In this document: one piece after another, positions 1,684-20,505 of the stretch | Layout: each line of letters starts with the position of its first letter | How positions within the stretch are numbered: position 1 is the first letter of the stretch | Origin: Nitrospirota bacterium | GTDB lineage: Bacteria > Nitrospirota > Thermodesulfovibrionia > UBA6902 | DNA length: 38,879 nt | NCBI GenBank assembly: GCA_016222905.1 | Contig: JACRPZ010000058.1 | Span: forward strand, 1 to 38,879 | Direction: 5' to 3' | Notes under the pieces: generated by a model | The model's database searches: none | Told to the model about the DNA's origin: nothing | The model's input: only the letters and a program-made list of their open reading frames with translations | Made by a program: the position numbers and the translations under genes

Positions 1684-3696
1684 ATGGAAATTCTTTTTAA
1701 TTTAATCGGCGTGTTTTCAGTAGGTGGAACAATCTTAGGAATTTTCGCCTTAATCCTGATATATCAATCAGTTGTTATTGTCGGGGGTAAAGAGCTCGCG
1801 CTTATTGAACGGAGATGGTTAGGCAAGAAGATGCCGCAGGGCAGGGTTGTTGCCATGAACAACGAAGTCGGTATTCAGGCAAGGACGCTTGGTCCGGGTA
1901 TGCACTTTCTTATTCCATTTATTTATACGGCAAAAAAGAGCGAGTTTATAGAAATCATGGACGGCAAGGTCGGACTCATCGAATCAGTCGATGGCAGCTC
2001 GATCCCTCCCGGTAAAATATTTGCAAAAGTAATACAGGGACATAATTCTTTTCAGGATGGAGAGGCGTTCTTACAAAACGGAGGCCAGAAAGGTCCTCAG
2101 ATTGATTTTCTTCCCCCCGGTAAATACAGAATAAATCCGTATCTTTTTAAAATATCAATTGCTGACGCAGTTGTTGTCGAGAAGGGGCAGGTGGGAGTTG
2201 TAACGTCACAGGACGGCAGTCCTATAGCACCTGGAAGACTGTTGGCAGCCAGTGTGCCTAATCATCATAACTTTGAAGATGGTGAAAAGTTTCTTGCTAA
2301 CGGCGGCCAAAAGGGCCCGCAGATCGACATACTCCTTCCCGGAACATATCGTATCAACCTGAATTTATTCCAGGTGACAACTGCGCGGGCAGCGGTGGTT
2401 GAGTCTGCTAAAGTCGGTCTCGTTACTGCCAAGGACGGCAACCCTCTCCCCGAAAAAGAATATGTTGCCCAGTCTGTAACTGGTCACGCTGATTTTCAGG
2501 ATGCCAATTCATTTCTCAAAGGCGGCGGGGAGCGCGGGCCTCAGCTCGATGTTCTTAAGCCCGGCACTTACTATATAAACCCGTTAATGTTTGACGTTGC
2601 CTTTGATGATGTTCAGGTTGTTGAGCGCGGACAGGTTGCGGTTGTTGTTTCAAACGTAGGCGAAGAGCCGACGTCTGACATGAAGAAGAGACTCGGATCG
2701 AGCCAGATGGGTGCGACCGAGGAAGAGGGCAAAGAGAAATATGTAGTACCTAAAGGATATCGGGGCATCCAGGAAGAAGTGGCTGGCCCCGGCAAATACT
2801 ACCTTAACAGGCTGGCCTTTATGCCTTATATTATTGACACGACAAACATTACAATAGACTGGGATGATTCAAAAGAGACAAAATTTAATGCTTTGAACGT
2901 GGTCTCAAAGGACGGATTCAGCATTGGTGTTTCGGTCAAAGTTGTCGTCCGCGTAAGACCGGACCAGGCGCCCTACATGGTATCGAAGGTCGGTTCTATC
3001 GACAACCTTATCCTTCACGTTATTCACCCCATGATCGATTCCAGCTTCAGGAACCAGGCCTCAACAACATCTGCCATGAACTTCATGCAGGACAGGCAGG
3101 AAGAGCAGACAAAGGCTGAAACAAGAGCAAGACTGGAGCTCGAAAAGTATCATGTCGAGTGCGTCTCCGTTCTTATCTGCCAGATTATGCTGCCACAGGA
3201 GCTTATGGATACTCAGACGAAGAAGATTATCGCACAGCAGCAGACCACTCAGTTCCAGGAAGAACAGAAGGCGCAGGTAACAAGAATCGAGATGGAAAAG
3301 ACCAAGGCGACCGCTGACCAGCAACCGGAACTTGTCCGGGCCGAGATTGCAGTCAAAGTTGCCGACCAGAAGAAAAGAGAAACAGTTACGCTCGCCGAAG
3401 GTAATGCTGAAAGCGCAAGACTGAAGGGCGAAGGTGATGCCAAAGCAATCGAATCAATAGGTATTGCTACCGCAGAGGCCTACGAAAAGCAGAAGACAGC
3501 CATCGGGCCACAGGCTATTATGGCTATCGAACTCGCAAAACATATCTCTGCTGGCAAGATTAAGATTATGCCTGATATTCTTACAATCGGGAGCGGCGGC
3601 GCAGCTGAAGGGCTTGCGGCAGTTCTTACACAGGCTATTTCACTCAGCGGTATGAAGATTGATCCTGACGGCAAGGCTGTTGTCAAGAAACCATAA
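1684..3696 (+). CDS. Flotillin / YqiK-like SPFH (band 7) family membrane protein with three internal about 65-aa repeats, 670 aa
   Basis: An aaaggagg RBS precedes the gene. The N-terminus is a TM segment, followed by an SPFH-like start (ELALIERRWLGKKMPQGRVVAMNNEVGIQARTL). The C-terminus is a flotillin-type EA-rich coiled coil ending ...AEAYEKQKTAIGPQAIMAIELAKHISAGKIKIMPDILTIGSGG. Residues about 120-320 hold three tandem repeats of the pattern FQDGExFLxNGGQKGPQxDxLxPGxYRINxxLFxV...VVExxxVGxVT. Confidence 0.8.
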   Translation: MEILFNLIGVFSVGGTILGIFALILIYQSVVIVGGKELALIERRWLGKKMPQGRVVAMNNEVGIQARTLGPGMHFLIPFIYTAKKSEFIEIMDGKVGLIESVDGSSIPPGKIFAKVIQGHNSFQDGEAFLQNGGQKGPQIDFLPPGKYRINPYLFKISIADAVVVEKGQVGVVTSQDGSPIAPGRLLAASVPNHHNFEDGEKFLANGGQKGPQIDILLPGTYRINLNLFQVTTARAAVVESAKVGLVTAKDGNPLPEKEYVAQSVTGHADFQDANSFLKGGGERGPQLDVLKPGTYYINPLMFDVAFDDVQVVERGQVAVVVSNVGEEPTSDMKKRLGSSQMGATEEEGKEKYVVPKGYRGIQEEVAGPGKYYLNRLAFMPYIIDTTNITIDWDDSKETKFNALNVVSKDGFSIGVSVKVVVRVRPDQAPYMVSKVGSIDNLILHVIHPMIDSSFRNQASTTSAMNFMQDRQEEQTKAETRARLELEKYHVECVSVLICQIMLPQELMDTQTKKIIAQQQTTQFQEEQKAQVTRIEMEKTKATADQQPELVRAEIAVKVADQKKRETVTLAEGNAESARLKGEGDAKAIESIGIATAEAYEKQKTAIGPQAIMAIELAKHISAGKIKIMPDILTIGSGGAAEGLAAVLTQAISLSGMKIDPDGKAVVKKP

Positions 3697-3749: not shown

Positions 3750-4217
3750 ATGACGAACAACGACATATTGCGAAGGTTACGGTATGCTCTGGATATCAGC
3801 AATCCGGTGATGATCAAAATATTTAAACTGTCCGGACATGATATTGATCAATCCGGGTTGACCGCTCTTTTTAAAAAGGAAGATGAAGAAGGCTATGTTG
3901 AATGCAGTGATAAGGTGATGGAATTGTTTTTAGACGGGTTAATTGTTCACAGAAGGGGCAGGAAGGAGAGTGTACCGGGTCAGGCAAAAAAGTCAGGCTC
4001 ACCTTTAACAAATAATGCCATATTGAAAAAACTGAGGATAGCGCTGGAGTTGAAAGAAGATGATATGATCGGGATATTAAAACTGGCAGGGGTCACTATG
4101 TCGGGGCATGAACTGACCGCGCTCTTCAGGAAAGAAGGGCATAGAAACTATAAGGAATGCGGGGACCAGTTCCTGAGAAATTTCTTGAACGGCCTTACTG
4201 TTCGCGACAGGGGTTGA
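3750..4217 (+). CDS. DUF1456 (YehS-like) protein, 155 aa, with two internal half-repeats
   Basis: The N-terminal motif TNNDILRRLRYAL recurs as TNNAILKKLRIAL in the second half. This matches the E. coli YehS architecture as I recall it. Confidence 0.7.
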   Translation: MTNNDILRRLRYALDISNPVMIKIFKLSGHDIDQSGLTALFKKEDEEGYVECSDKVMELFLDGLIVHRRGRKESVPGQAKKSGSPLTNNAILKKLRIALELKEDDMIGILKLAGVTMSGHELTALFRKEGHRNYKECGDQFLRNFLNGLTVRDRG

Positions 4218-4300: not shown

Positions 4301-6685
4301 ATGATTGACGGCAATTTGAATACGAAAATTTGTTTTTTATCGCGTCGCAACATTACTGTGTTGGCGGCGATTTTTTTTATTGCGCTTCTTGCGGTTATAG
4401 ATGTCGCGGGGTTTTCCCGCAATGTGGCAGCAGAGACAGACGATTATTTAAAAAACGCGGAGCCATCTGATATTTCTGAGTGGAAGTATTACGGCATAGA
4501 CTCGGAAGAATCCAAAAAATGGATAAAAGAAGGAATTATATTCGCTGCGTGGGCGGCGCAGTGGCGGGGTGAGGGATTCAGCCCTGAGGCTGCCGGCAAG
4601 TGGCGTAAAATAGCGAATGTTTATACCGCGGGAGATTTTTTAAAAAACGGCTTTGGCCCAGACGAGGCCAAGGAGTGGATGGACAACAGCATTCATTCAG
4701 GGCTTCGCGCAAGAGAATATTTAACTTCAGGGCTTACGGCAAAGGAGGCAAGGTCATTCTGGAAGGAAGGGCTTTATCCGGAAGAAGCAAAAGAATGGTG
4801 GAACGCCGGGTTTGACGCCAAGTCAATGCTCGAGTGGCATTACGGTCCACGGGAAAGCGAGTTTTATTACACAAAGGATTCTCCTTCCGCCAGAACCGTC
4901 TATGAGCTTGACATGGCGGTAAAATGGCGCGAAGCGGGCTTTACGCCGCATAATGCGCATATGTCCGGCTTATACGGCATAGAACTTGAAGAGGCTATAA
5001 AATGGAAAGAAGCCGGTTTTTCTTTTGACGATACCGTAAAATGGAAAGATTCGGGTTTTACGCTCGAAGAGGCTCTTTTAAGCAAAAATGCGGGATTAAG
5101 CGCCGTTGACGCGGAACTCAAGCGTTTCGACGAGACGGTTGATAAAGGCGACGAGATATCGAGCTTTGACGCTGACATAACGATAAATAAGGACGGCACG
5201 CTCGACGTCATTGAAACAATAGCGATAATCAACAGGCCGGGCGGTGTATATGAATACGGGTATTCTAAAGTGCTGCCTGTTTCAGGGGAGTTAAGGTCGT
5301 ACGGTTTTTCGCGAGAAATGTATTCAAACCCTGTATTTGAATTGAAGTCAATAGAAGTGGACGGCTCTATCGGCGAGTATTATATCTCGAATAATCTTCT
5401 TTATGTTGGAAGTAAGGATAAACCGCTTAAAGAAGGAGAGCACCTGATAAAATTATCCTATTCAACCGACGGCAGGATTCTGGATGAGCCTCATCATGAT
5501 GAATTGTATTTCTCTATAGTCGAGGAAAATTTTTTCGGCGGATATATAAGAAACGCCTCGGTAACGGTCAGGCTTCCGAAGGGTACGGACGTGATATATG
5601 CTGGCGGCAAAGCCGGATTGTATAAAAGAGAGGATTTCGTTTCGAGCGTTGCAGAAACAAGTAACGGCGATGTCGTGAGTTTTATTGCTGCAAGGCCGCT
5701 TAAGGAAAGAATGCATTTTGCGGTAACCGTAGGGTTCGTAAAGGGATATGTTGATGAAGGAATACTGCATAAACTTAAACAATTTGATAAACGCGCCGGA
5801 AGTTTTTTGTCGAGTTTCGCTATTTTCGTTTTAGGTTTTACCGCCGCGTTTGCTTACTATTTTATCGCGTGGTTTAAGGTGGGGCGCGACCCAAAAGGCC
5901 GTGAAACGGCAATTTTAGAATACTCGTCTCCCGATGATATGGACCCTGCCCTTATGAGGGCGCTTTATGTAAAAGGAAGGACGGATTATCTAAGCGTAGC
6001 TTCCGAGCTTCTCTATCTCGCGGAGATCGGGCTTATTAAGATTTCCGAATATGAAGGAACTTACAAGATAGAAAAAACACTGGTTACTGCAGATGATTTG
6101 CCGAAAATTGTAAAAGAATTTTACACGGCGTTTTTTGGCGCTCAAAGCGAAGTGTTTCTATCGCATAAAGGCAAGGGCAAAGAGGTTTCAAACACCGCGC
6201 AGGTACTGAAAGCCTCGTTAACGAACGAATATAAAAAATACAGCGTATCAAACCGGCGTTATCTATGGCCCGGTATTATTTTGTCCATTTTGTCCATAGT
6301 GTCGTCGCTTTTGATAATCGATTATAATAAATTTGATAACGGAAAAGCCTTCATAGTAATTTCATTTTACGCGACTTTTATAGTCACGGCATTCGCAGTT
6401 ATCACGTTTATGTTTAAGCGTTTTTTACGTTTGCCGACCATGGAATATATTAGGCTTCGCGAACGGGTAGACGGTTATGCCGGATTTCTGGCGGGTAATT
6501 ACAGTGACCGCGGAGACACGCGCTTTATTCCGCCTATTTTGCAGAAGCATCTTCCTTATGCAATTGCCGCCGGCATGGACGTAAGCGATTTGATGATACG
6601 AAATGGAGAGGCTAAATGGTATCATGGAACTTCAGGCGGTTTCGGATGCGAGGATTTTATCAAGCTCGTAAAAAAAGCGTTGTAA
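4301..6685 (+). CDS. DUF2207-type multi-pass membrane protein with an N-terminal array of W-x3-GF-x3-EA repeats, 794 aa
   Basis: An N-terminal TM segment is followed by about 12 copies of a 13-residue unit (e.g. WRGEGFSPEAAGK, WKEAGFSFDDTVK, WKDSGFTLEEALL). A DUF2207-like ecto-domain follows (DITINKDGTLDVIETIAII...). Three C-terminal TM helices complete the protein. It is adjacent to LemA, a known DUF2207 partner. Confidence 0.7.
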   Translation: MIDGNLNTKICFLSRRNITVLAAIFFIALLAVIDVAGFSRNVAAETDDYLKNAEPSDISEWKYYGIDSEESKKWIKEGIIFAAWAAQWRGEGFSPEAAGKWRKIANVYTAGDFLKNGFGPDEAKEWMDNSIHSGLRAREYLTSGLTAKEARSFWKEGLYPEEAKEWWNAGFDAKSMLEWHYGPRESEFYYTKDSPSARTVYELDMAVKWREAGFTPHNAHMSGLYGIELEEAIKWKEAGFSFDDTVKWKDSGFTLEEALLSKNAGLSAVDAELKRFDETVDKGDEISSFDADITINKDGTLDVIETIAIINRPGGVYEYGYSKVLPVSGELRSYGFSREMYSNPVFELKSIEVDGSIGEYYISNNLLYVGSKDKPLKEGEHLIKLSYSTDGRILDEPHHDELYFSIVEENFFGGYIRNASVTVRLPKGTDVIYAGGKAGLYKREDFVSSVAETSNGDVVSFIAARPLKERMHFAVTVGFVKGYVDEGILHKLKQFDKRAGSFLSSFAIFVLGFTAAFAYYFIAWFKVGRDPKGRETAILEYSSPDDMDPALMRALYVKGRTDYLSVASELLYLAEIGLIKISEYEGTYKIEKTLVTADDLPKIVKEFYTAFFGAQSEVFLSHKGKGKEVSNTAQVLKASLTNEYKKYSVSNRRYLWPGIILSILSIVSSLLIIDYNKFDNGKAFIVISFYATFIVTAFAVITFMFKRFLRLPTMEYIRLRERVDGYAGFLAGNYSDRGDTRFIPPILQKHLPYAIAAGMDVSDLMIRNGEAKWYHGTSGGFGCEDFIKLVKKAL

Positions 6686-6698
6686 GAGATGAACGAAT

Positions 6699-7202
6699 AT
6701 GTATACAGCCTATAAAATAAATCCGTGGCCATCGAGGCTGTTGTTTGCTCTTTGCCTCGTGCTTTCGTTTTTGATTCCATACTATGCGGCTGTGCTGGCT
6801 GAGAACGCGCTTATCAAGCACTGGGAGGGTTACGGGTTTACTCCGGAACAGACGCTCTCCTGGTGGGATAAAGGCTTTGTATCCATGGATACGGCAAAGA
6901 GATGGCGCGCCGAAGGGTTTACAGCCCCGGAAGCCGAGTCATGGATGATAATGGACATTCCGTCGGGCGAGGCGCGCGAGTGGAAAGACGGCGGAGTAGT
7001 GTTATCAGAGGCAATGGAGTGGAGGCGGTACGCATTTACACCAAGTAAGGCAAAGGACTGGATGCGTTTCGATTTCAGCATGGGCGACGCGATTGCATGG
7101 CGTAAACACGGGTTTGAGGCTGAAGAAGCAGCGGCGTGGAAGCGCAAGGGAATGAGTCCAATGGGAGCCGTCGAACAAAAGCGCAGAGGAGTTACGCCGT
7201 AA
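6699..7202 (+). CDS. Small membrane-anchored protein made almost entirely of the same W-x3-GF-x3-EA repeats, 167 aa
   Basis: An N-terminal hydrophobic segment LLFALCLVLSFLIPYYAAVLA is followed by repeats (WEGYGFTPEQTLS, WRAEGFTAPEAES, WRKHGFEAEEAAA ...). Its TAA stop overlaps the next gene's ATG (TAATG). Confidence 0.6.
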   Translation: MYTAYKINPWPSRLLFALCLVLSFLIPYYAAVLAENALIKHWEGYGFTPEQTLSWWDKGFVSMDTAKRWRAEGFTAPEAESWMIMDIPSGEAREWKDGGVVLSEAMEWRRYAFTPSKAKDWMRFDFSMGDAIAWRKHGFEAEEAAAWKRKGMSPMGAVEQKRRGVTP

Positions 7203-7711
7203 TGGTGCTTAAGCGTGCAGACGCTGAGAGAAAGGATCCGCCAGAAACCTTTCCCGCTCGCATTGCGCCGTGGTTCGCTCAGGTTATTGTTGTTTTTTGC
7301 CTCGCGGCGTCTTATTTTCTTCCGTATTTTGCTGTCTCGGTTAAGGAGGCATACGATAATAGAGAATGGCTAAAGACCGGAATGAGCGGTTACGAGATAG
7401 ATGATTGGAAGAGGGAAGATATTGACATGGGTCATGCCGTGCGATGGCGTAACGCGGGATTTAAGCCGCCGCACGCCTCAATTTGGGTCAGTAACGGATT
7501 TGAACCGGAAGAATCCGGAATGTGGAACGACCGTGGTTTTTCTCCGAGTGAGGCGATTTCATGGAAGGACAACGGATTTACGGCGGAAGAGGCCTCCGCC
7601 TGGGAGGCGAACGGGTTCTATGATACTGAGGCGAATGACTGGAAAATGAACGGCGTAGGCCCGGTTGAAGCAGCTGTGAAAAAAAAGAAAGGAGAAAGGC
7701 CTAACAGGTGA
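7202..7711 (+). CDS. Paralogous small membrane-anchored W-x3-GF-x3-EA repeat protein, about 169 aa from the ATG at 7202
   Basis: The same frame is open from 7136, but the ATG at 7202 overlaps the upstream stop and removes the gene overlap. It has a TM segment WFAQVIVVFCLAASYFLPYF and then clean 13-residue repeats (WNDRGFSPSEAIS / WKDNGFTAEEASA / WEANGFYDTEAND / WKMNGVGPVEAAV). Confidence 0.55.
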   Translation: MVLKRADAERKDPPETFPARIAPWFAQVIVVFCLAASYFLPYFAVSVKEAYDNREWLKTGMSGYEIDDWKREDIDMGHAVRWRNAGFKPPHASIWVSNGFEPEESGMWNDRGFSPSEAISWKDNGFTAEEASAWEANGFYDTEANDWKMNGVGPVEAAVKKKKGERPNR

Positions 7712-7737
7712 TAGAATAATAAAGGAGGGATAAGAAT

Positions 7738-8319
7738 ATGAATATGGGTATGGATATAAATATTAAGATTGCTGCCGGAATTACAGGCGTGGTGATATTC
7801 CTGTTGTTAGTAATTTATATCTACAATAAACTCGTGCGCTTACGGTATGCAGTGAAAAATTCGTGGTCAGATATAGACGTGCATTTAAAAAAGAGGTATG
7901 AGCTTTTACCGAACCTCGTCGAAGCGGTTAAAGGATACACAACCCACGAAAACGAAACTCTCGCAAAGATAACGCAATTGAGATCCTCGGCAATGGGCGC
8001 TCAAACACCACATGAAAAAGCCAGGGCCGACAATATAATAACGCAGACACTTAAATCCCTTTTCGCGCTTGTCGAGGCATATCCGGAACTCAAGGCTGAC
8101 GTGCATTATAAAGAGATAATGTCCAACATGAAGGAGATTGACGATAACATAGAACACGCGCGCCGTTTTTATAACGCATCGGTAAAGGATTATAACATCG
8201 CTACGGACGTATTTCCGACTAACATCATGGCTTCTGCGTTTTCTTTTAAGCCGGAGGAATTTTTCTTGCTCGACGACGAAGCATCTGAGCGTAAGCCCGT
8301 AAAGGTCAGTTTCAAATAG
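7738..8319 (+). CDS. lemA: LemA family protein, 193 aa
   Basis: An aggaggg RBS precedes it. It has an N-terminal TM segment and the LemA signature NKLVRLRYAVKNSWSDIDVHLKKRYELLPNLVEAVKGYTTHENETL. Confidence 0.85.
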   Translation: MNMGMDINIKIAAGITGVVIFLLLVIYIYNKLVRLRYAVKNSWSDIDVHLKKRYELLPNLVEAVKGYTTHENETLAKITQLRSSAMGAQTPHEKARADNIITQTLKSLFALVEAYPELKADVHYKEIMSNMKEIDDNIEHARRFYNASVKDYNIATDVFPTNIMASAFSFKPEEFFLLDDEASERKPVKVSFK

Positions 8320-8386: not shown

Positions 8387-8488
8387 ATGGCAAAGTCGCA
8401 AGAGTCAAAAAAAGAGACCAAGAAAAAACCGCTAAAGACAGCTAAAGAGAAGAGGGCTGCAAAGATAGAAAAGAAGCAAAGTAAATAG
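8387..8488 (+). CDS. Possible 33-aa lysine-rich small protein (MAKSQESKKETKKKPLKTAKEKRAAKIEKKQSK)
   Basis: A strong aaaggagag RBS lies 7-8 nt upstream of the ATG. It is below the 60-aa ORF-track cutoff. The highly basic, low-complexity composition makes a coding call tentative. Confidence 0.3.
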   Translation: MAKSQESKKETKKKPLKTAKEKRAAKIEKKQSK

Positions 8489-8505
8489 CAGCCGGCAGGA
8501 TCTAT

Positions 8506-8856
8506 CTATTTTTCAATGAGTCTTATTCCATTGCTCTCAATGGTAATAAGCCGTTTTTTGTAAAGGGCGCCTATAGCCTTTTTGAAAGTTTTCTTGCTTA
8601 CACCGAAATCGATCGTGTCATAGCCGGGTTTTTGGAGGCAGAGATCAATCTTGCCGTCATCCCGTACCTTTTTAATAAATCCCGTTATGCGTTGTCCTTT
8701 TCTTAATGGCTGAAACACCTCGTTCTTATAAAGCACGCCTATGCGGGAGTTGCTGATAATTGCCTTATATCCTATCTCGGTCGGGTCGCAGATCAACAAT
8801 TCCACACTTTGGCCTTCCTGAAATTCCTCCGGCTGTTTATCAGGGAACTTTTTCAT
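8506..8856 (-). CDS. Small S1-like / winged-helix nucleic-acid-binding protein (CvfB/YitL C-terminal-like), 116 aa
   Basis: The ORF has a C-terminal ...KKAIGALYKKRLITIESNGIRL winged-helix-like segment and an S1-like beta-rich middle. The assignment is by resemblance only. Confidence 0.45.
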   Translation of the reverse strand: MKKFPDKQPEEFQEGQSVELLICDPTEIGYKAIISNSRIGVLYKNEVFQPLRKGQRITGFIKKVRDDGKIDLCLQKPGYDTIDFGVSKKTFKKAIGALYKKRLITIESNGIRLIEK

Positions 8857-10777: not shown

Positions 10778-12214
10778 ATGAAAACACTTAAAGACAGATT
10801 GTTCAGATCTTCCCTAAATAAAAAGCTGGTAGCGATGATGCTTTTTTTAAATCTCGCCCTTATTGCGATGCTTGTTTTTCTTTATTACCAGACTGAGAAA
10901 GGCATCTATAATGAGTTTGAGCGGCGGACATCCGAGATTTCAAAAGCAATACAGATCGGCCTTGAGCAGGCAACGAGCAGCGGTCTGATGGATGAGAAGC
11001 GTCTTAAAGGCTATCTCGATAAACTGAACACAAAAGGGGTGAAGGAGATATCGGTCATCAGCACCTCCGACAGGATTATCTCAAGCACAAACCAGAAGGA
11101 CATAGGGAAATGGATAACGAAGAGCAAAAAAGAGCTTATCTTTAAGGCTGAACTCGGCGAGCCTGTGACAGGGGAAGGCCAATCATACAATGTCATGATC
11201 CCGGTCGTGTCCGGAGATAAAAATATGGGATATATATCCCTTACTTTGAATACCGAGGATTTTTCTGTCTTTCTTAAGGCGAGCGCCATAAGGAGGATAG
11301 TCGCAGCCTCTATCGTATTTGCAATAGGGATACTATTGGCCATTTTCCTGGCAAGAAGATACACAACCCCTATAGAGGAGCTGGTTACAGCCGCGCAAAA
11401 AGTTGCTATGGGAGACCTTAATCAGGAGCTGCATTCAAACAGGAAAGACGAGATCGGCGAACTCTCCCGAAGCTTTAACTATATGGTGGAGAAGTTGCGG
11501 GAAGAACGCAAGCTTATGGAGAAGCTGAGAAAGGCGGAGCATCTTGCTGCAGTAGGACAGTTTGCGAGGAATATCGCGCACGAGATCAAAAATCCTCTGA
11601 ATTTTATCAACCTCTCCATTGATCATATGAGAGAGGCTGCAAGGCCGGACAATACGGAAAGCGCGGAAAAGTTTGAGTCCCTGATCCTGAATATGAAGAG
11701 CGAGATACAGCGTGTAAGCAGGTTCGCCGAAAGTTTTCTTGAATACGGAAGGCCTTTTGAACTGAACCTGAGAAGAACAGGAATAGGAGAGGTTCTTTCC
11801 GAGATAATTGAGCTTGTAGAGGTAAAGGCGATTCAGTCAAAAATACTAATAAAGAAGGAGTACAAAATCCTGCCGGAACTTTTGATTGACCCGGATTTTA
11901 CAAAGACCTGCATATATAACATAATCATTAATGCCTTTGAGGCGATGCCCAATGGGGGCGTCATTACAATCAATACCAGCAAATCAGACTCGAAATTCCA
12001 TCTCTCGGTGGAGGATACTGGGATCGGCATCCCGCAGGATAAACTTTCAAAGATATTTGAACCCTTCTTCACTACAAAGAGCAAGGGACTGGGGCTGGGG
12101 CTTGCATTCACAAAAAGGATAATTGAAGACCATAACGGTAAGGTAACGTTTGAAAGCATAGAGGGCAAGGGGAGCAAAATAACCATAATTCTGCCTATGG
12201 AGAAGGAGAGCTGA
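10778..12214 (+). CDS. Membrane sensor histidine kinase (two TM segments, periplasmic domain, HAMP, HisKA, HATPase_c), 478 aa
   Basis: The H-box is NIAHEIKNPLNFI. The N box is NIIINAFEAM. The G boxes are DTGIGIP and GLGLGL. Confidence 0.85.
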   Translation: MKTLKDRLFRSSLNKKLVAMMLFLNLALIAMLVFLYYQTEKGIYNEFERRTSEISKAIQIGLEQATSSGLMDEKRLKGYLDKLNTKGVKEISVISTSDRIISSTNQKDIGKWITKSKKELIFKAELGEPVTGEGQSYNVMIPVVSGDKNMGYISLTLNTEDFSVFLKASAIRRIVAASIVFAIGILLAIFLARRYTTPIEELVTAAQKVAMGDLNQELHSNRKDEIGELSRSFNYMVEKLREERKLMEKLRKAEHLAAVGQFARNIAHEIKNPLNFINLSIDHMREAARPDNTESAEKFESLILNMKSEIQRVSRFAESFLEYGRPFELNLRRTGIGEVLSEIIELVEVKAIQSKILIKKEYKILPELLIDPDFTKTCIYNIIINAFEAMPNGGVITINTSKSDSKFHLSVEDTGIGIPQDKLSKIFEPFFTTKSKGLGLGLAFTKRIIEDHNGKVTFESIEGKGSKITIILPMEKES

Positions 12215-12215
12215 T

Positions 12216-13577
12216 ATGCCTGTTGTTCTTGTCGTAGATGATGAGCCGCTTCAAAGGGATATTATGAAGACGATCCTTACCGCCGAAGGATACGAAACCC
12301 TTACGGCTTCTTCAGGACAGGAGGCGCTAGGTATTATCAAGAAATTTCATCCGGATGTTATCCTTACAGACCTCAGAATGGAGGGAATGGACGGTATAGA
12401 GTTAATGCAATCTGTTCCCAAACTGCCGTTTGAGCCCTCGATAATTATCATTACCGCGCACGGCACCATATCATCGGCTGTTGAGGCGGTAAGAAAAGGG
12501 GCGTTTGATTATCTCACCAAACCGCTTGATAAAGATACCATCCTTCTTACCTTGAGAAGAGCAATTGAACACGTCAGACTCCTAAAGGAGAATGTCAGGC
12601 TGCGGAGTGAGCTCTTTGAGAAATTTAAAATCGAGGGCATAGTCGGAAAGTCCGCCATGATGCAGAAGGCGATGGAGATCATCAGAAAGGTCTCATCATC
12701 ATCGGTAACAGTCCTTATCAGAGGAGAGAGCGGAACAGGCAAGGAGCTCATCGCAAGGGCGATCCACTATAACAGTCCGAGAAGCACAAAGCCGTTTACC
12801 GCGCTAAACTGCGCGGCAATCCCGGAGAATCTTTTTGAGAGCGAGCTCTTTGGATATGAAGCCGGTGCATTTACAGGCGCTGTCGGAAGAAAGGAAGGCC
12901 TCTTTGAGATGGCAAACGGAGGAACGCTGTTTCTCGATGAGATAGGCGACCTTCCCCTTGTGACCCAGTCAAAACTACTCAGGGTGCTTCAGGACAAGGA
13001 GATACGGAGAATAGGCGGCAAAGAGACTAAGAAAATTGACGTAAGGATAATAACCGCAACTAACAAGGATATGGAGAAAGAGATTGCAGACGGCAGATTC
13101 AGGGAAGACATATATTACAGGCTTAAAGTGGTAACAATTTTCCTTCCGCCTCTCAGAGAAAGGCTTGAGGATATTCCCGACCTCGTTGATTTATTTATCA
13201 AGAAATACAATCAGGCATTCGGCAGAAGGATAAAATCCATAGAGCCCGCTGCCATGAAGGCGCTTGCCGGATACAACTGGCCCGGCAATATAAGGCAGAT
13301 AGAATCCGTTATCGAGAGGGCCGTTCTTATGAATGAGACAGGGGTCATAAATTCAAAAGATATACACGGCGAGCTTGAGCTCTTTCAGTTAAGCGGCAGG
13401 CCGTTTGTTCTTGACCTGCCTCCTGAAGGAGTGGATCTGGAGAAGATAGAAGAGGATCTTATCAATAAAGCGATGGAAAGATCCGGCGGAGTAGCTACAA
13501 AAGCCGCCAAACTTCTCGGCATGAACTATAAAGCGTTTTTATATAGGCTGGATAAGAGCAAAAAGGTCTCAGAGTGA
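12216..13577 (+). CDS. Sigma-54-dependent response regulator (NtrC/AtoC family: REC + AAA+ sigma54-activation + Fis-type HTH), 453 aa
   Basis: The REC domain is VLVVDDEP...DLRMEGMDG. The Walker A is GESGTGKE. The GAFTGA motif and [15 protein letters not shown] are present. The C-terminal HTH is [19 protein letters not shown]. The gene starts 2 nt after the kinase stop. Confidence 0.9.
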
Positions 13578-14241: not shown

Positions 14242-16368
14242 TCAATCGCCCCACTCCTTATCAAAGACAGCCCCGTCCATATGCGTCATGATATTGTCGT
14301 AATCCTTCTTCAGTCTTTCATACATGGTCGCATTCTCTATCGCCATACCGCACTGACCTGCAAGCGACGCGACAAAGTCTATCTCCTGCTGTGAAAAGTG
14401 TCTATGTTTATCAGTAAGAAGCCTCAGCACACCGAGCACCTTGCCTCTCGCAACCACAGGCAGTGTAAGCATGCTCTTTAAGCCTTCTTCCGCTGCTTCT
14501 TTCTGATACTGAATCCTGCTGTCGGTTGTTACATCATATATGGCAACAGGATTTTCTTTCAACGCCTCGATTATATTCTTTTCAGTGTCAACAGGCCCCT
14601 TATTCAGATATTTCTCACTCAGGCCGTATGATGCCGCAAGTTTAAGCTTTGTGCCGGTGCTGTCCAGCAAGCGGACAGTGGCTGCCTTTAAGTTCATAAC
14701 TTCAGGTATCTTCCTCACGATCATATCAAGCACTTCATGCACATTAAGCGTGGAGCTGACCGCCTTTGTTATCTCCTTGAAGACCCTAAGGTATTCCTTC
14801 TCATCAGATACCGCCTTCTCAAAATCCCTTGCATTTACTATAGCTGTCGCAGCCTGCTCTGCTATCGCTGATATGAATTTAAGGTCCTCATCCGTATAGT
14901 CAACCGGCTCGGTTGTGTATATCCTAAGTACGCCTATCACATCGCCCCTGAAGCGTATAGGTATGGAGAGGATGCTCCTGATGCCTTCCTCCAGAGCCTC
15001 CTTGTAATATCTTGAATCCTTATGCTCTGCAATGTCATACACTGACACGGATTTGCCTGCAAGCGCATCATCAATGCTCGCGTCATAGTCAACAGGGCCT
15101 TTATTTGCGTACTTCTCGCTCAGACCGTAATATGTTGCAAGCTCAAGCTGGTTAGTTTCCTTGTTAAGAAGCCTGAGAGAACTCGCCTTAAGACCCATAA
15201 CCTCAGGTATCTTCCTCACTATCATATCAAGCACTTCAAGCACATTAAGGGTAGAGCTGACCGCCTTTGTTATCTCTTTGAAGACCCTCAGATACTCCTT
15301 CTCGGCAGATACCGCCTTCTCAAAATCCCTTGCGTTCACTATAGCTATCGCAGCCTGCTCTGCTATAGCTGATATGAATTTAAGGTCCTCATCCGTATAA
15401 TTCACAGGCTCGGTTGTATACATCCTAAGAACGCCTATCACATCGTCTCTGAAACGCATAGGTATGGAGAGGATGCTCCTGATGCCTTCCTCCTGCGCCT
15501 CCCTGTAGTACTTTGAATCCTTATGCTCTGTAATGTCATACACTGACACGGACTTACCCGCAAGCGCGTCATCAATGCTTGCGTCATAGTTAACAGGGCC
15601 TTTATTTGCGTACTTCTCGCTCAGTCCATGATATGCCGCGAGCTCAAGCTGCTGCGTCTTCTTGTTCAGGAGCCTGAGGAGGCTCGCCTTGACATTCATG
15701 ACCTTAACAACATTTGCCACAATCAGCTTCAATACCTCATCAACGGAGACGCTGGAGCTTATGGCTTTGCAGATATTCTGATAACTCTCCAGATATATCT
15801 TCTTCTCGAATATCTTCTCAGCACATAACGGGCATATGCCGTGAGTAAAAACACCAAAACCCTCATCTGTAAAATATGTCTCGATATCATACCAGTGATC
15901 ATCGCCTTTTCTTATCTTTTTGCACCACCCGCATATCGGGACAAGGCTCTCTTTCCTGTCAGTCTTTAATTGCTTTGCAATATCTTTAATTGTATCCGTA
16001 ATCTCTCTGAATGCTGCCACAACTCCTGTGACTTTGCCTTTTTCATATAACGGAGATGCCTTCTCTTCAACATGGATCAGCCCCTTATCTTTTGTCTTTA
16101 AGAAAAAATTTTTCCTTACGGGCGTATTTATCTGAAAACAGAGGGCAACGGGATACTCAAACTGCTGCAATACGTTTCCCCTTCCATCTTCAAGCCTTAT
16201 AACGCTGTCATTAAATGGCTTTCCCGTAACTTCATCGGCAGTAAAACCCGTCAATATTTCAGCGCCTCTGTTCCAAAAGCTTATCTTTCTGTCCGGATCA
16301 ACCAGATACACTCCGTCCGGCATATTATCCAGAATCCGGCGATAGGACTTCCTTTCCCATGTAATCAT
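14242..16368 (-). CDS. PAS – CxxC...CxxC zinc-ribbon – three tandem GAF domains, no output domain, 708 aa
   Basis: The N-terminal PAS is ILDNMPDGVYLVDPDRKISFWNRGAEILTGF. The cysteine motif is ICGWCKK...(28 aa)...CPLC. Three GAF units of about 167 aa follow. GAF1 and GAF2 are near-identical at the protein and DNA level. Confidence 0.8.
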   Translation of the reverse strand: MITWERKSYRRILDNMPDGVYLVDPDRKISFWNRGAEILTGFTADEVTGKPFNDSVIRLEDGRGNVLQQFEYPVALCFQINTPVRKNFFLKTKDKGLIHVEEKASPLYEKGKVTGVVAAFREITDTIKDIAKQLKTDRKESLVPICGWCKKIRKGDDHWYDIETYFTDEGFGVFTHGICPLCAEKIFEKKIYLESYQNICKAISSSVSVDEVLKLIVANVVKVMNVKASLLRLLNKKTQQLELAAYHGLSEKYANKGPVNYDASIDDALAGKSVSVYDITEHKDSKYYREAQEEGIRSILSIPMRFRDDVIGVLRMYTTEPVNYTDEDLKFISAIAEQAAIAIVNARDFEKAVSAEKEYLRVFKEITKAVSSTLNVLEVLDMIVRKIPEVMGLKASSLRLLNKETNQLELATYYGLSEKYANKGPVDYDASIDDALAGKSVSVYDIAEHKDSRYYKEALEEGIRSILSIPIRFRGDVIGVLRIYTTEPVDYTDEDLKFISAIAEQAATAIVNARDFEKAVSDEKEYLRVFKEITKAVSSTLNVHEVLDMIVRKIPEVMNLKAATVRLLDSTGTKLKLAASYGLSEKYLNKGPVDTEKNIIEALKENPVAIYDVTTDSRIQYQKEAAEEGLKSMLTLPVVARGKVLGVLRLLTDKHRHFSQQEIDFVASLAGQCGMAIENATMYERLKKDYDNIMTHMDGAVFDKEWGD
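14700..15700. repeat. Tandem direct DNA repeat with period about 501 bp (two near-identical copies plus a diverged third) encoding the GAF domains
   Basis: The string ttcaggtatcttcctcac occurs at 14701 and again at 15202. Long blocks such as gctgaccgcctttgttatctc...aatcccttgc...gctgatatgaatttaaggtcctcatccgtata recur with few substitutions. Plus-strand ORFs 14540-14899 and 15161-15400 translate nearly identically as a side effect. Confidence 0.8.
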
Positions 16369-16424
16369 ATTAAACAGTAGTCTCCCGGTTCTTCAGATGT
16401 GATTGTTAATTTTGAGGAAAATTA

Positions 16425-17828
16425 TTATGTCGCAGCATATACAACATTTCGTGTTGAGAACTTCCCGCGGTACATGGCTTTGTCGGCAATCCTGAGCAGT
16501 TCTTCTTTCCGTTTTGTGTTTTGAGGACATGAGGCAACCCCAAAACTCGCTGTTAATCTGATGGATTGTCCGTCCTGCTTTAAAAAGACTTTCTGCTCGA
16601 TCGCCTTCCTGAGTCTTTCAGCCACAAGAAAGCCTCCCTTGAGAGGAGTCTGGGGCAGGATTACCACAAACTCGTCTCCTCCGTATCTGGCAACAGTATC
16701 AACACCCCTTAGTTTATCGAGCATAAGCTGTGCAGTCTCAATTAACACTTTGCTTCCGACAAGGTGTCCAAAGCGGTCATTTATTCTCTTGAAATAGTCA
16801 ATATCCATAAATATAAGTGAGAATGAAGTGCCGTATCTCTGCGACCTCTCTATCTCTCTGTCTATTGCGCGGTTCAGATAACGTATATTAAAGAGTTTGG
16901 TAAGCTCATCAGTAATCGTAAGGTCCTCCATTTTTTTGTACAGCAATGTCTTTTCAATAGCCATGTCAGCATAACCGACAAGCTTCATGAGGAGTTCCAT
17001 GTCTTTATCAGTAAAAACTTTTTCTTTGCCCTTTGCATAAAATTCAAAAACACCGACAACTTTTTTTTCAACCTTTACAGGCACGCACATTATAGACGCC
17101 GGCCTAAGATTGGGGAGCGCGTCTATCTTTTTATTAAAACGTTTATCTTTTAAAACATCCTGGACTATTACAGGAATGCCGTTCTGCGCTACCCATCCGG
17201 CTATGCCTTCCCTCTCACTGCCCCTGAATGTATATATTTTCTTGGATTTCTTCTTCAGCATGTCGCCAAAAACAATCTCATCGCTCACTCCTTCAACGAG
17301 AAGAATTGCCCATGCGTCAGCGCCTGTTAAAGCCTTTGCCCTCTCCATTATCAGGATCAGTATCTTCTCTATTTCAAAAGTGGAACCGAGGATCCCTGTA
17401 ATCTCCTCAAAGAATTTCAATTCTTTTTTTCTGTTCAGTATCTCGGACTGCAGATCTCTCTTGCAGTCTGAAACGGTCTTGTCTCTAAAAAGTTTTTCCG
17501 CCCAATATTTAAATTCTCTGTAGGAGACCAGCTCATTAATAGGTATTGCCAGCCTGTCTTTAAGCCATGCGCCCATGTCTTTAAAGCCTTTTTCCGTCAA
17601 GACGATCTTTGGGATACCGTCCGAGGCATCCTTGAACTTCTTAAAGAGAGCAGTCCCTGTTGAAAAGGTTTTATTAATTACGATCAGTCCGATATCTCCA
17701 TCATTAAGACGGGATAATGCCTGATGAAGGTCTTGTTTGATTACAAGTGTGTATCCGCCTTTTTTCAGAATAGCCCTGAAATCACGGATCGAGGAACCGC
17801 CTTTGTCTATCAGCAGTATCTTATTCAT
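16425..17828 (-). CDS. Degenerate receiver (REC-like) – GAF – GGDEF diguanylate cyclase, about 467 aa from the ATG at 17828
   Basis: The GGDEF motif RYGGDEFVV and the upstream RxxD-like region are present. GAF sits in the middle. The N-terminal KILLIDKGG...IGLIVIN lacks the usual acidic pocket and phospho-acceptor Asp. The start at 17828 (MNKILLID) overlaps the secA stop by only 8 nt, whereas the longer ORF would overlap by 62 nt. Confidence 0.85.
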
Positions 17829-20505
17829 TTTGCCCGCAGCATCTCTTGTATTTTTTGCCGCTCCCGCATATGCAAGGGTCATTTCTGCCCACCCTCACGC
17901 TCTTTACTACGGTCTGCGGTTTAGTCACTGCCATGCCTGCTTCTCCTCCCCTGCCGTACTGCATCTTTACAGGTTTAAAGGCAAGCCTCCGCTCTATTTC
18001 ATCTTCTCTTGCAATCTGTATCTTGAAGAGCCTTCCAACCACCTCTGATGCTACCCTCTCACCCATCTCTGTAAAGGCGTCAAAGGCCTCCTTTTTATAC
18101 TCAACCAGAGGGTCTCTCTGTCCGTATCCCCGGAGACCTATCCCTTCTTTGAGGTGATCCATGCTCAAGAGGTGGTCCTTCCACTGAGAGTCAACAACCT
18201 GAAGAAGTATCATCTTCTCAAGATATCTTAATGCCTGCTCACCGATCTCCTGCTCTTTATTATTATACGCCTCTTCTATTTTTCCAAGAAGATTCTGATG
18301 AAGCTCTTCAATGCCTGTTTCTGTCACGCTGTAAATGGTATTGAACTGTCCGTAAAGCGCGTCTCCAAGACCTTTCATATCCCATTCTTCAGGATGTTTC
18401 TCCTCCGGGCAGTAAATAAAGACTATGCTGTCAAGAACATCCTCAGCCAGTTCCATAACACGGCTGCGCAGATTTTCTCCAGTGAGTATCTTCTTCCTGA
18501 AAGAGTAGATCTCCGTTCTCTGTTTATTCATTACATCATCATATTCAAGCAAATGTTTTCGAATATCGAAATTGTGCCCCTCCACCTTCTTCTGAGAATT
18601 TTCTATGGCCTTGGATATCCATTTATGCTCTATGGGCTGAGACTCATCCATCCCGAGTTTATCCATAAGACCTGAGATCCTGTCAGAACCGAAGATCCTC
18701 ATGAGATCATCTTCAAGTGAGAGGTAAAACCGCGACGATCCGGGATCCCCCTGGCGGCCGGAGCGTCCCCTTAGCTGATTATCTATTCGCCTTGCCTCAT
18801 GCCTTTCCGTGCCGAGAATATGAAGTCCGCCGGCCGCAATAACTTTTTCGCGGTCCTCTCTGCAGATCCTCTCTGCCTCTTCAAGCGCCTTTCTGTACTC
18901 CTCCTCGGAATAATCCTTCCTATCCCCCAGCATATCCTTTGCGGTTGCTTCAGGGTTACCGCCCAGCACTATATCCGTTCCGCGGCCTGCCATGTTGGTG
19001 GCTATCGTTACAGAGCCGCTCCTGCCTGCCTGCGCAACTATTTCAGCCTCTTTTTCATGATATTTTGCATTAAGAACAGTATGAGGCACCTTCCTCTTCT
19101 TTAACATGGAGTCAATCAGTTCCGACTTCTCAATCGAGATAGTACCCACCAGAACAGGCTGCCCGCGCTTATGGCAGTCTTCGATTTCATTTACAACGGC
19201 ATTGAGTTTGCCGTTTACGTTCTTGTAAACAACATCAGGGAAATCAGGCCTTATCAAAGGCTTGTTTGTAGGGATAACAAGCACATCAAGGTTATATATC
19301 TTTATAAACTCCGCTGCCTCTGTGTCGGCAGTGCCTGTCATGCCTGCCAGCTTATTGTACATTCTGAAGTAATTCTGGAATGTGATAGTGGCGAGCGTCT
19401 GGTTCTCGCTGGCGATCTTAACCCCTTCTTTTGCCTCTATCGCCTGATGCAGTCCATCAGACCAGCGCCTGCCCGGCATAAGACGGCCGGTGAATTCATC
19501 AACAATGATAACCTCATTGTCCTTGACGATATAGTCTACATCATGCTTAAAGAGTGAGTGAGCCCTTAACCCCTGGTTTACATGATGCACAAGCTCTATA
19601 TTGGCAGGGTCATAAAGGTTTACTATTCCAAGAAGCTTCTCAACCTTAATATTGCCCTCGTCAGTGAGCATTACGCTCTTTGCCTTTTCATCTATTGTGT
19701 AATCAGTCTCTATTTTAAGCTTAGGTATTATCTTGTCTATCTGATAGTACTTGTCTGTGGACTCTTCAGAGGGCCCTGAGATTATGAGAGGGGTTCTCGC
19801 CTCATCAATCAGGATGCTGTCCACTTCATCAACTATCGCAAAGTTCAGTTCCCTCTGCACATAGTCGTCAATGTGATACTTCATGTTGTCCCTTAAGTAA
19901 TCAAAGCCGAACTCATTATTTGTGCCGAAGGTAATATCAGCATGATAGGCATTCCTCCTGTCAACAGGCCTCAAATTATGAAGCCTGATCTCATCCGCGT
20001 GATATGAAGGGTCATAAATAAAAGAGGCGTCATTCTGAATAACACCGACAGAGAGTCCAAAAAAATCATATATAGGGCCCATCCACTTGGCATCCCTCTT
20101 TGCAAGGTAGTCGTTGACGGTGACAATATGCACTCCCCTGCCGTCAAGGGCGTTTAAATATACCGGAAGCGTGGCGGAAAGGGTCTTGCCCTCTCCTGTC
20201 TTCATCTCAGCTATCTTTCCACTGTGGAGGACCATGCCGCCGATAAGCTGGACATCAAAATGGCGCATTTTAAGGACCCTGCGCGAGACCTCTCTGACAA
20301 CAGCGAAGGCCTCGGCCAGAATATCATTGAGTGTCTCCCCTGCCTCAATCCTTTTACGGAATTCATCCGTCTTGGCTCTAAGGGCGGAATCATCAAGAGA
20401 CTTGAGAGAGGGTTCGAGCGCATTTATCTCTGCCACTCTCTCACTGAGCTTCTTGACCTCACGCTCGTTTTTTGTTCCTAATATTTTGGATAAAATACCT
20501 AACAT
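17821..20505 (-). CDS. secA: Preprotein translocase ATPase SecA, 894 aa
   Basis: The canonical N-terminus is [24 protein letters not shown]-motor motifs are present. The C-terminal zinc-binding tail is [14 protein letters not shown]. Confidence 0.95.

Follow-up and report, generated by a model that had tools for sequence, protein, structure and literature searches.

Positions 4301 to 8319 of a 38,879-nucleotide stretch of DNA from a Nitrospirota bacterium (contig JACRPZ010000058.1; the whole stretch is called the window here) hold four co-oriented open reading frames (ORFs): a DUF2207 protein (p1), two small single-pass membrane proteins (p2 and p3) and a LemA family protein. A preliminary description of this DNA had proposed a DUF2207–LemA cluster with a tandem 13-residue repeat in three consecutive proteins. 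The ORF list places the four genes at the same coordinates, and Pfam searches, autocorrelation and residue shuffling bear the proposal out. The features of the cassette are listed below with their evidence in brackets; E is the expect value, TM stands for transmembrane, and pLDDT is the predicted local distance difference test score of AlphaFold2 (AF2) models.

4301–6685, plus strand: p1, DUF2207 protein with an N-terminal repeat array, 794 residues (ORF, PF09972, PF20990 and hydropathy).
4301–4432, plus strand: predicted Sec signal peptide of p1, residues 1–44 (basic n-region K9/R15/R16, hydrophobic core and V-A-A↓E cleavage motif; read from sequence and flank charges).
4481–4834, plus strand: repeat block A of p1, residues 61–178, about nine units of 13 residues, two of them degenerate (unit layout; short predicted helices over residues 68–181 at a spacing of about 13 residues; domain match to the p2/p3 profile, independent E 4.8e-12).
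4925–5119, plus strand: repeat block B of p1, residues 209–273, five units (unit layout; predicted helices over residues 203–279, pLDDT 78–93; profile domain, independent E 8.1e-16).
5153–5596, plus strand: DUF2207 N-terminal, beta-rich domain of p1, residues 285–432 (PF09972, E 1.7e-8; low-confidence beta strands from residue 291).
5918–6580, plus strand: DUF2207 C-terminal membrane domain of p1, residues 540–760 (PF20990, E 3.6e-19).
6699–7202, plus strand: p2, single-pass protein, 167 residues (TM segment at about 14–32 with a conserved S-F-x-x-P-Y; nine units, residues 42–159, nucleotides 6822–7175).
7202–7711, plus strand: p3, single-pass protein, 169 residues from the ATG (TM segment at about 21–47 with S-[FY]-x-x-P-Y; eight units, residues 56–159, nucleotides 7367–7678; basic C-terminal tail KKKKGERPNR).
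7738–8319, plus strand: LemA family protein, 193 residues (PF04011, E 3.8e-51; N-terminal TM segment, residues 11–29).

The assignment of p1 to DUF2207 is supported by 35.3 bits against PF09972 (cutoff 24.4) and 69.9 bits against PF20990 (cutoff 33), and its hydrophobic segments lie at residues 18–36, 505–523, 655–673 and 683–701. The fourth gene matches the LemA family PF04011 over profile positions 1–149 of 149 with 173.3 bits (cutoff 26.2). No Pfam or NCBIfam match was obtained with the native full-length p2 and p3. Between p1 and p2 there are 13 nucleotides, the stop codon of p2 and the start codon of p3 overlap as TAATG, in agreement with the translational coupling put forward earlier, and p3 is separated by 26 nucleotides from LemA, with AAGGAGG ahead of the latter. 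We placed the start of p3 at the ATG at 7202, not at the GTG at 7136, because the N-termini of its orthologues line up with this ATG. A promoter and terminator scan gave sites no more frequent than in shuffles. The defence models of PADLOC-DB had no match at E ≤ 0.01 to p1, p2, p3, LemA or the products of the upstream SPFH and DUF1456 genes.

The repeat unit reads W-[KR]-x-x-G-[F/hydrophobic]-[ST]-P-x-E-A-x-x and occurs in tandem in p1, p2 and p3, to which it is confined within the whole window. Identity autocorrelation peaked at lags 13, 26 and 39 only, at 0.27–0.33 in p2 and p3 and 0.15 in residues 50–280 of p1, and there was no peak in p1 outside these residues. When lag-13 identity was compared with 5000 residue shuffles, z was 5.2 for p1, 7.9 for p2 and 10.5 for p3, and 0/5000 shuffles were as high. 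Counted in register, there are about 14 units in p1, 9 in p2 and 8 in p3, about 31 in total. The p1 array had been described as about 12 units; it is there, but in two blocks (residues 61–178 and 209–273) with a 30-residue non-repeat insert between them. The period had also been called strict and the Trp, Gly-Phe and Glu-Ala positions invariant. The period of 13 is indeed strong, but a few units are 12 or 14 residues long, and among 30 units W is kept in 25/30, G in 25/30, F in 17/30, P in 11/30, E in 16/30 and A in 21/30, the F position being hydrophobic in 30/30. Tandem Repeats Finder detected no period-39 repeat at the DNA level, and the units are therefore ancient. The three proteins are paralogues, as the preliminary description had it: p2 and p3 share about 31% identity, cross-matches among p1, p2 and p3 range from E 1e-8 to 1e-23, and a profile built from the p2 and p3 families alone matches p1 at E 1.5e-27.

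The identical gene order (DUF2207, two small repeat proteins, LemA) was found at 10 other loci, namely L001–L009 and the P0154 contig, which gives 11 instances with the window. Exactly four genes in this order are present at nine of them, one on a metagenome contig and eight from a scan of GTDB genomes, and the tenth, more divergent locus has DUF2207 (746 residues), a 158-residue protein, a 151-residue protein and then LemA. The sources are Nitrospirota metagenome-assembled genomes (MAGs), Nitrospira, Syntrophaceae, Smithella and a 'Deltaproteobacteria' MAG, that is, Nitrospirota and Syntrophia-type Desulfobacterota MAGs. All-against-all comparison of the flanking ORFs showed that the loci have the four cassette genes alone in common and that the flanks are unrelated. 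We read the four genes as a self-contained, vertically conserved operon. Within it, the TM motif S-[FY]-x-x-P-Y is invariant or near-invariant in both the p2 and the p3 families (S37, P41 and Y42 in p3 numbering), and the orthologues of both proteins keep the repeat register. In the p3 alignment the membrane-proximal units (G63–K70 and R81–W95) are invariant, while the distal units keep scaffold positions only.

Word-indexed searches gave few relatives, 7 for p3, 3 for p2 and 3 orthologue fragments for the p1 N-terminus. A tblastn search of plasmids with the repeat array gave no match, and we found no description of the four-gene DUF2207/LemA form in the literature. Two loci from the genome scan (L010 and L011, from Longimonas and Rhodothermaceae) were rejected, the matching gene encoding a thiamine-monophosphate-kinase-like protein with a chance 'RWRNAGFKP' string. 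As a separate observation, p3 orthologues (window 7679–7708; P0002–P0007, P0021 and P0044) have a basic cap, A-A-x-[KR]-K-K-K-G-E-[RW]-P-P, after the last repeat, which might act in capping, membrane contact or sorting.

The repeat had been presented as part of a module attached to the LemA/DUF2207 system, but it proved not to be special to that system. An exhaustive profile search of 1.84 billion cluster representatives (clusters at 50% identity) matched 2307 proteins at E ≤ 1e-3, of which 1041 reach E ≤ 1e-10 and 121 reach E ≤ 1e-30; kinases, helicases, WD40 proteins and lipoproteins are among the matches. The matches reach E 1e-84, and many proteins, up to 1612 residues long, have 4–11 matched stretches. 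Period 13 is family-wide, being the best lag in 97 of 147 relatives (lag 26 in another 34), which together have 1610 occurrences of a W-W spacing of 13. In a Pfam scan of 62 relatives, protein kinase domains (Pkinase) were found in 11/62, and UvrD, WD40, S1 and MerR domains were found too. In a crude census of the 147 top matches, 78 proteins lacked any hydrophobic segment and 43 had an N-terminal signal or anchor, including 16 with a lipobox. Other TM segments were present in 26, several of which have a kinase-repeats-TM architecture. The repeat thus works on both sides of the membrane and is a general-purpose scaffold in thousands of bacterial proteins. The cassette, with LemA and DUF2207, recurs at the 10 further loci; the other repeat carriers examined are not adjacent to LemA or DUF2207. 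Among the carriers, P0011 and P0012 (1555–1612 residues) have an unusual architecture in which a Ser/Thr kinase is joined to about 20 repeat units and a complete UvrD-type helicase with no membrane segment. P0089 and P0170, both lipoproteins, and P0073 have in common a non-repeat C-terminal domain of about 100 residues with a G-x-G-A-Y-[KR]-Y motif (looser in P0089), for which no Pfam match was reported.

The repeat had further been presented as unrecognised among named families, and this did not hold either. Pfam and NCBIfam scans of the window proteins give no repeat match, but the unit corresponds to PF25296, the 'Decapeptide repeat region', a descriptive, uncharacterised Pfam family with no attached function. 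PF25296 was matched by 12/62 relatives, mostly below its gathering threshold of 45 bits. P0045 passes this threshold with 48.1 bits and is matched by the p2/p3 profile at E 2.8e-45. P0089, a lipoprotein with a precomputed PF25296.2 assignment, consists of plain 13-residue W-x3-G-F units and is matched by the p1 N-terminus at E 4.6e-13. The window queries match both members in the same motif and register. Seven copies of an idealised unit (WKEAGFSPEEAKE) score 57.4 bits against PF25296, and with nine real window units concatenated PF25296 is the top match (E 5.6e-5) at 23.4 bits, below the 45-bit threshold. The native p1, p2 and p3 and their isolated repeat regions gave no PF25296 match even at E ≤ 10. 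Judged from these comparisons, the window repeat is the PF25296 repeat, and its copies here are divergent members missed by the current model. The family is named for a decapeptide, yet the true period is 13 both in the window proteins and in the members inspected. The possibility that PF25296 is the decapeptide found in p180/RRBP1, the ribosome receptor, was rejected, as a query of eight NQGKKAEGAQ units does not match the family. No paper mentioning PF25296 was found, and literature searches on '13-residue repeat' gave no mechanism.

The array is predicted to be an elongated all-helical alpha-solenoid. In the AF2 model of p3, made from a 12-sequence alignment, mean pLDDT was 87.6 and exceeded 90 across the array. 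In this model a TM helix is followed by eight helices of 7–9 residues with 4-residue turns (residues 63–71, 76–84, 91–97, 102–110, 115–123, 128–136, 141–149 and 154–162), one helix per 13-residue unit. The helical-hairpin solenoid first suggested is therefore upheld as a solenoid, with a hairpin corresponding to two units. The model of the p1 N-terminus (4 sequences) has 15 short helices at a spacing of about 13 residues, followed by the beta-rich DUF2207 N domain. With the p3 model, Foldseek found no match below E 0.1 in the PDB or BFVD, viral matches being tape-measure helices, and sequence searches of the PDB with p3 and with the profile gave nothing significant.

Signal-peptide sites and flank charges make the extracytoplasmic location first proposed for the arrays likely. 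In p1, the signal-peptide n-region, TM3 and TM4 follow the positive-inside rule with the N-terminal domain outside, and TM2 is uninformative with 4 K/R on each flank. AXA-type cleavage sites also align in the orthologues P0167 (ATA↓H) and P0168 (AGA↓E). The p1 N-terminal region, with the repeats and the DUF2207 N domain, would then be periplasmic, and its loops and tail cytoplasmic. For p2 and p3 we favour an N-in/C-out orientation with periplasmic arrays because, when net charge is compared across the TM core, the N flank is the more positive one in 22/29 orthologues and the C flank in 1/29. The helical domain of LemA is probably cytoplasmic, since 4 K/R and 0 D/E lie just C-terminal to its TM helix.

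The repeat, its period, its homologies and the conservation of the cassette are direct observations. From them we infer, with middling confidence, that membrane-anchored periplasmic alpha-solenoid scaffolds extend a DUF2207–LemA inner-membrane envelope complex; topology, complex formation and physiological role belong to the inferred part. Each 13-residue unit would form one short helix of about 9 residues and a 4-residue turn, and the units would stack into an elongated alpha-solenoid with a core of Trp, Phe and Ala. All three arrays would be exported, that of p1 directly after a cleavable signal peptide and ahead of the DUF2207 ectodomain, with p2 and p3 as N-in/C-out anchors and the LemA helical domain and DUF2207 loops in the cytoplasm. 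We suggest that p1, p2 and p3 assemble through the TM motif S-F-x-x-P-Y and the highly conserved membrane-proximal units. Because the TM residues are invariant in both paralogue families and the membrane-proximal units of p3 are invariant as well, specific helix–helix and ectodomain contacts seem a better reading than independent function, and for this reason we read the cassette as one inner-membrane complex. Such an assembly could serve as a periplasmic protein-interaction platform that gives the DUF2207–LemA complex a larger sensing or binding surface, and the complex itself may be involved in envelope or stress homeostasis. Streptococcus mutans without its DUF2207 gene SMU.243 tolerates acid and oxidative stress less well and forms less biofilm (PMC10457818). 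Besides that gene, we found nothing on DUF2207 genetics in the literature.

Several points weigh against this reading. The fold is a prediction from a 12-sequence alignment, and the p1 model is poor overall (pLDDT 51.7), its helices having moderate to high local confidence. For p2 and p3, topology is read from the charge-difference rule only, and the plain K+R count of their flanks is ambiguous (35 N-terminal vs 43 C-terminal). The main dissenting feature is the C-terminal tail of p3, whose strongly basic character is more typical of the cytoplasmic side. Many repeat relatives are clearly cytoplasmic (kinase-repeat-UvrD fusions with no TM segment), and because of this the location of an array cannot be read from the repeat itself. 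Our literature searches on LemA, DUF2207 and the pair found no mechanism or function, and the upstream flotillin-like SPFH neighbour, a possible hint of membrane stress, is not conserved at related loci.

Some of these points lend themselves to a split topology, in which the p1 array would be periplasmic but p2 and p3 would be N-out/C-in tail-type anchors with cytoplasmic solenoids that dock on the LemA domain and the DUF2207 loops. The basic ends of the p3 orthologues ([KR]KKKGE[RW]PP) and the indecisive raw flank count are compatible with it, as is the fact that most kinase-linked relatives carry the repeat in the cytoplasm beside membrane anchors (for example P0015 and P0043, both kinase-repeats-TM). 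We nevertheless consider this arrangement unlikely. The net-charge difference favours N-in by 22/29 vs 1/29 orthologues, the N-tails of p2 and p3 have a net positive charge of up to 4, which disfavours translocation, the homologous p1 array is predicted to be exported, and in lipoprotein relatives the repeat evidently folds outside the cytoplasm.

The arrays might also bind a non-protein envelope component such as peptidoglycan, lipid head groups or polysaccharide, like aromatic-rich cell-wall-binding repeats, instead of acting as protein scaffolds. One Trp and one Phe per 13 residues, the tethering of the arrays at the membrane surface and the existence of exported lipoprotein relatives would suit such a role. 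We hold it to be quite improbable, however, given that proteins lacking an export signal also contain the repeat, joined to kinases, UvrD helicases, S1 and WD40 domains, and that Pfam and structure searches revealed no similarity to known wall-binding repeats. In addition, a W/F/A pattern with a helix-breaking G and P in every 13 residues would fit a buried core rather than exposed aromatic cradles.

A further view, which we regard as highly improbable, is that the units are interfacial amphipathic helices resting on the membrane surface, as 11-mer repeats do in lipid-binding proteins, and that with LemA they sense or remodel the bilayer. MamQ, a LemA-family protein, acts in magnetosome membrane formation. 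The family-level similarity of the window LemA to MamQ (NF040966, E 3.5e-24), the richness of the repeat in Trp, Phe and Lys and its constant membrane tethering in the cassette are what such a reading could draw on. Against it, AF2 gives discrete 9-residue helices broken by G-F and P turns (pLDDT >90 across the array) rather than long surface helices, the repeat regions carry an acidic or neutral net charge (30 K+R vs 44 D+E in p1 and 16 vs 22 in p3), and many relatives are soluble. Finally, although the repeat is short and Pfam and NCBIfam are empty for the native repeats, the notion that the periodicity arises from composition or chance and that the family is low-complexity noise is refuted by the shuffles (0/5000 reach the observed lag-13 identity), by orthologues that keep register and by profile matches to E 1e-84 with 1610 13-residue W-W spacings, and it deserves practically no weight.

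The cassette and its repeat matter in two respects. Few bacterial membrane proteins without a known mechanism are as widespread as LemA and DUF2207, and a fixed four-gene variant with three paralogous arrays, presumably periplasmic, points to defined interaction partners. The repeat itself is common (>2300 clusters at 50% identity), is often attached to Ser/Thr kinases and lacks a solved structure; it is poorly detected by current profiles, which miss p1, p2 and p3. With a better profile and a single structure, thousands of proteins could be annotated.

Other genes lie on either side of the cassette in the window. Upstream, an SPFH/Band 7 protein of 670 residues (1684–3696, plus strand; PF01145 at residues 356–531) has three tandem copies of about 92 residues ahead of the SPFH domain, each with G-G-[QE]-[KR]-G-P-Q-[IL]-D-x-L-x-P-G-x-Y-x-I-N. 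Between this gene and the cassette lies a DUF1456 (YehS-like) two-domain protein (3750–4217, plus strand; E 2.6e-61). The SPFH/flotillin-like and DUF1456 genes were rejected as cassette members, being absent from every related locus with enough upstream sequence. Just downstream of LemA, an unlisted 33-codon ORF (8388–8489, plus strand) encodes a very basic peptide (MAKSQESKKETKKKPLKTAKEKRAAKIEKKQSK) and is preceded by AAAGGAGAG. A 116-residue ORF (8506–8856, minus strand) covers no more than the C-terminal portion of a CvfB-like protein, with part of an S1-like stretch and the CvfB winged helix (E 2.5e-12), and may be a truncated or a short stand-alone form; similar ORFs are present in L002 and L009. 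Farther downstream (10778–13577, plus strand, and 14242–17882, minus strand) come genes for a HAMP histidine kinase and a sigma-54 (NtrC-type) response regulator, followed by those for a PAS-GAF x3 protein and a GAF-GGDEF cyclase beside secA. These signalling genes look like ordinary chromosomal context, and no link to the cassette was seen.

Compared with known helical repeats, the arrays resemble TPR, Sel1 and HEAT by functional analogy, as tandem helical units in elongated scaffolds that are often kinase-fused or envelope-anchored. The classical unit of those families, however, has 34–40 residues and two helices, whereas the window unit has 13 residues and a single 9-residue helix. In Pfam, p1, p2 and p3 gave no TPR or Sel1 match at E ≤ 1. 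To our knowledge, a 13-residue unit is among the shortest helical repeat units. A more far-reaching and distinctly doubtful proposal is that the 13-mer may define a natural class of ultra-short-helix alpha-solenoids with no solved representative, with a predicted geometry nearest to designed left-handed alpha/alpha toroids, and that the three arrays (about 31 units) might co-assemble as a periplasmic ring or super-helix on the DUF2207–LemA complex. The designers of these toroids reportedly considered the architecture unrepresented among natural structures. The designs (dTor_12x31L, PDB 5byo/4yxy/4yxz) differ in having 31-residue two-helix units and closed rings. If true, the ring or super-helix would open, for the first time, a structural and functional approach to the PF25296 repeat as well as to the LemA/DUF2207 pair.

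The window LemA belongs to the same LemA fold family as MamQ. It is not MamQ, however, as its 85.5 bits fall short of the equivalog cutoff of 250, and no magnetosome genes were seen among the window ORFs scanned. Among the closest known systems is the LemA (PF04011)/DUF2207 (PF09972 and PF20990) pair, of which the window genes are clear family members, near each other and co-oriented as in the known pairing. They depart from it in that the window DUF2207 protein has a repeat array of about 245 residues between its signal peptide and its DUF2207 N domain, and in that two extra single-pass repeat proteins are placed between the two genes. In short, the cassette represents a new form of the LemA/DUF2207 pairing, which is itself known but uncharacterised.

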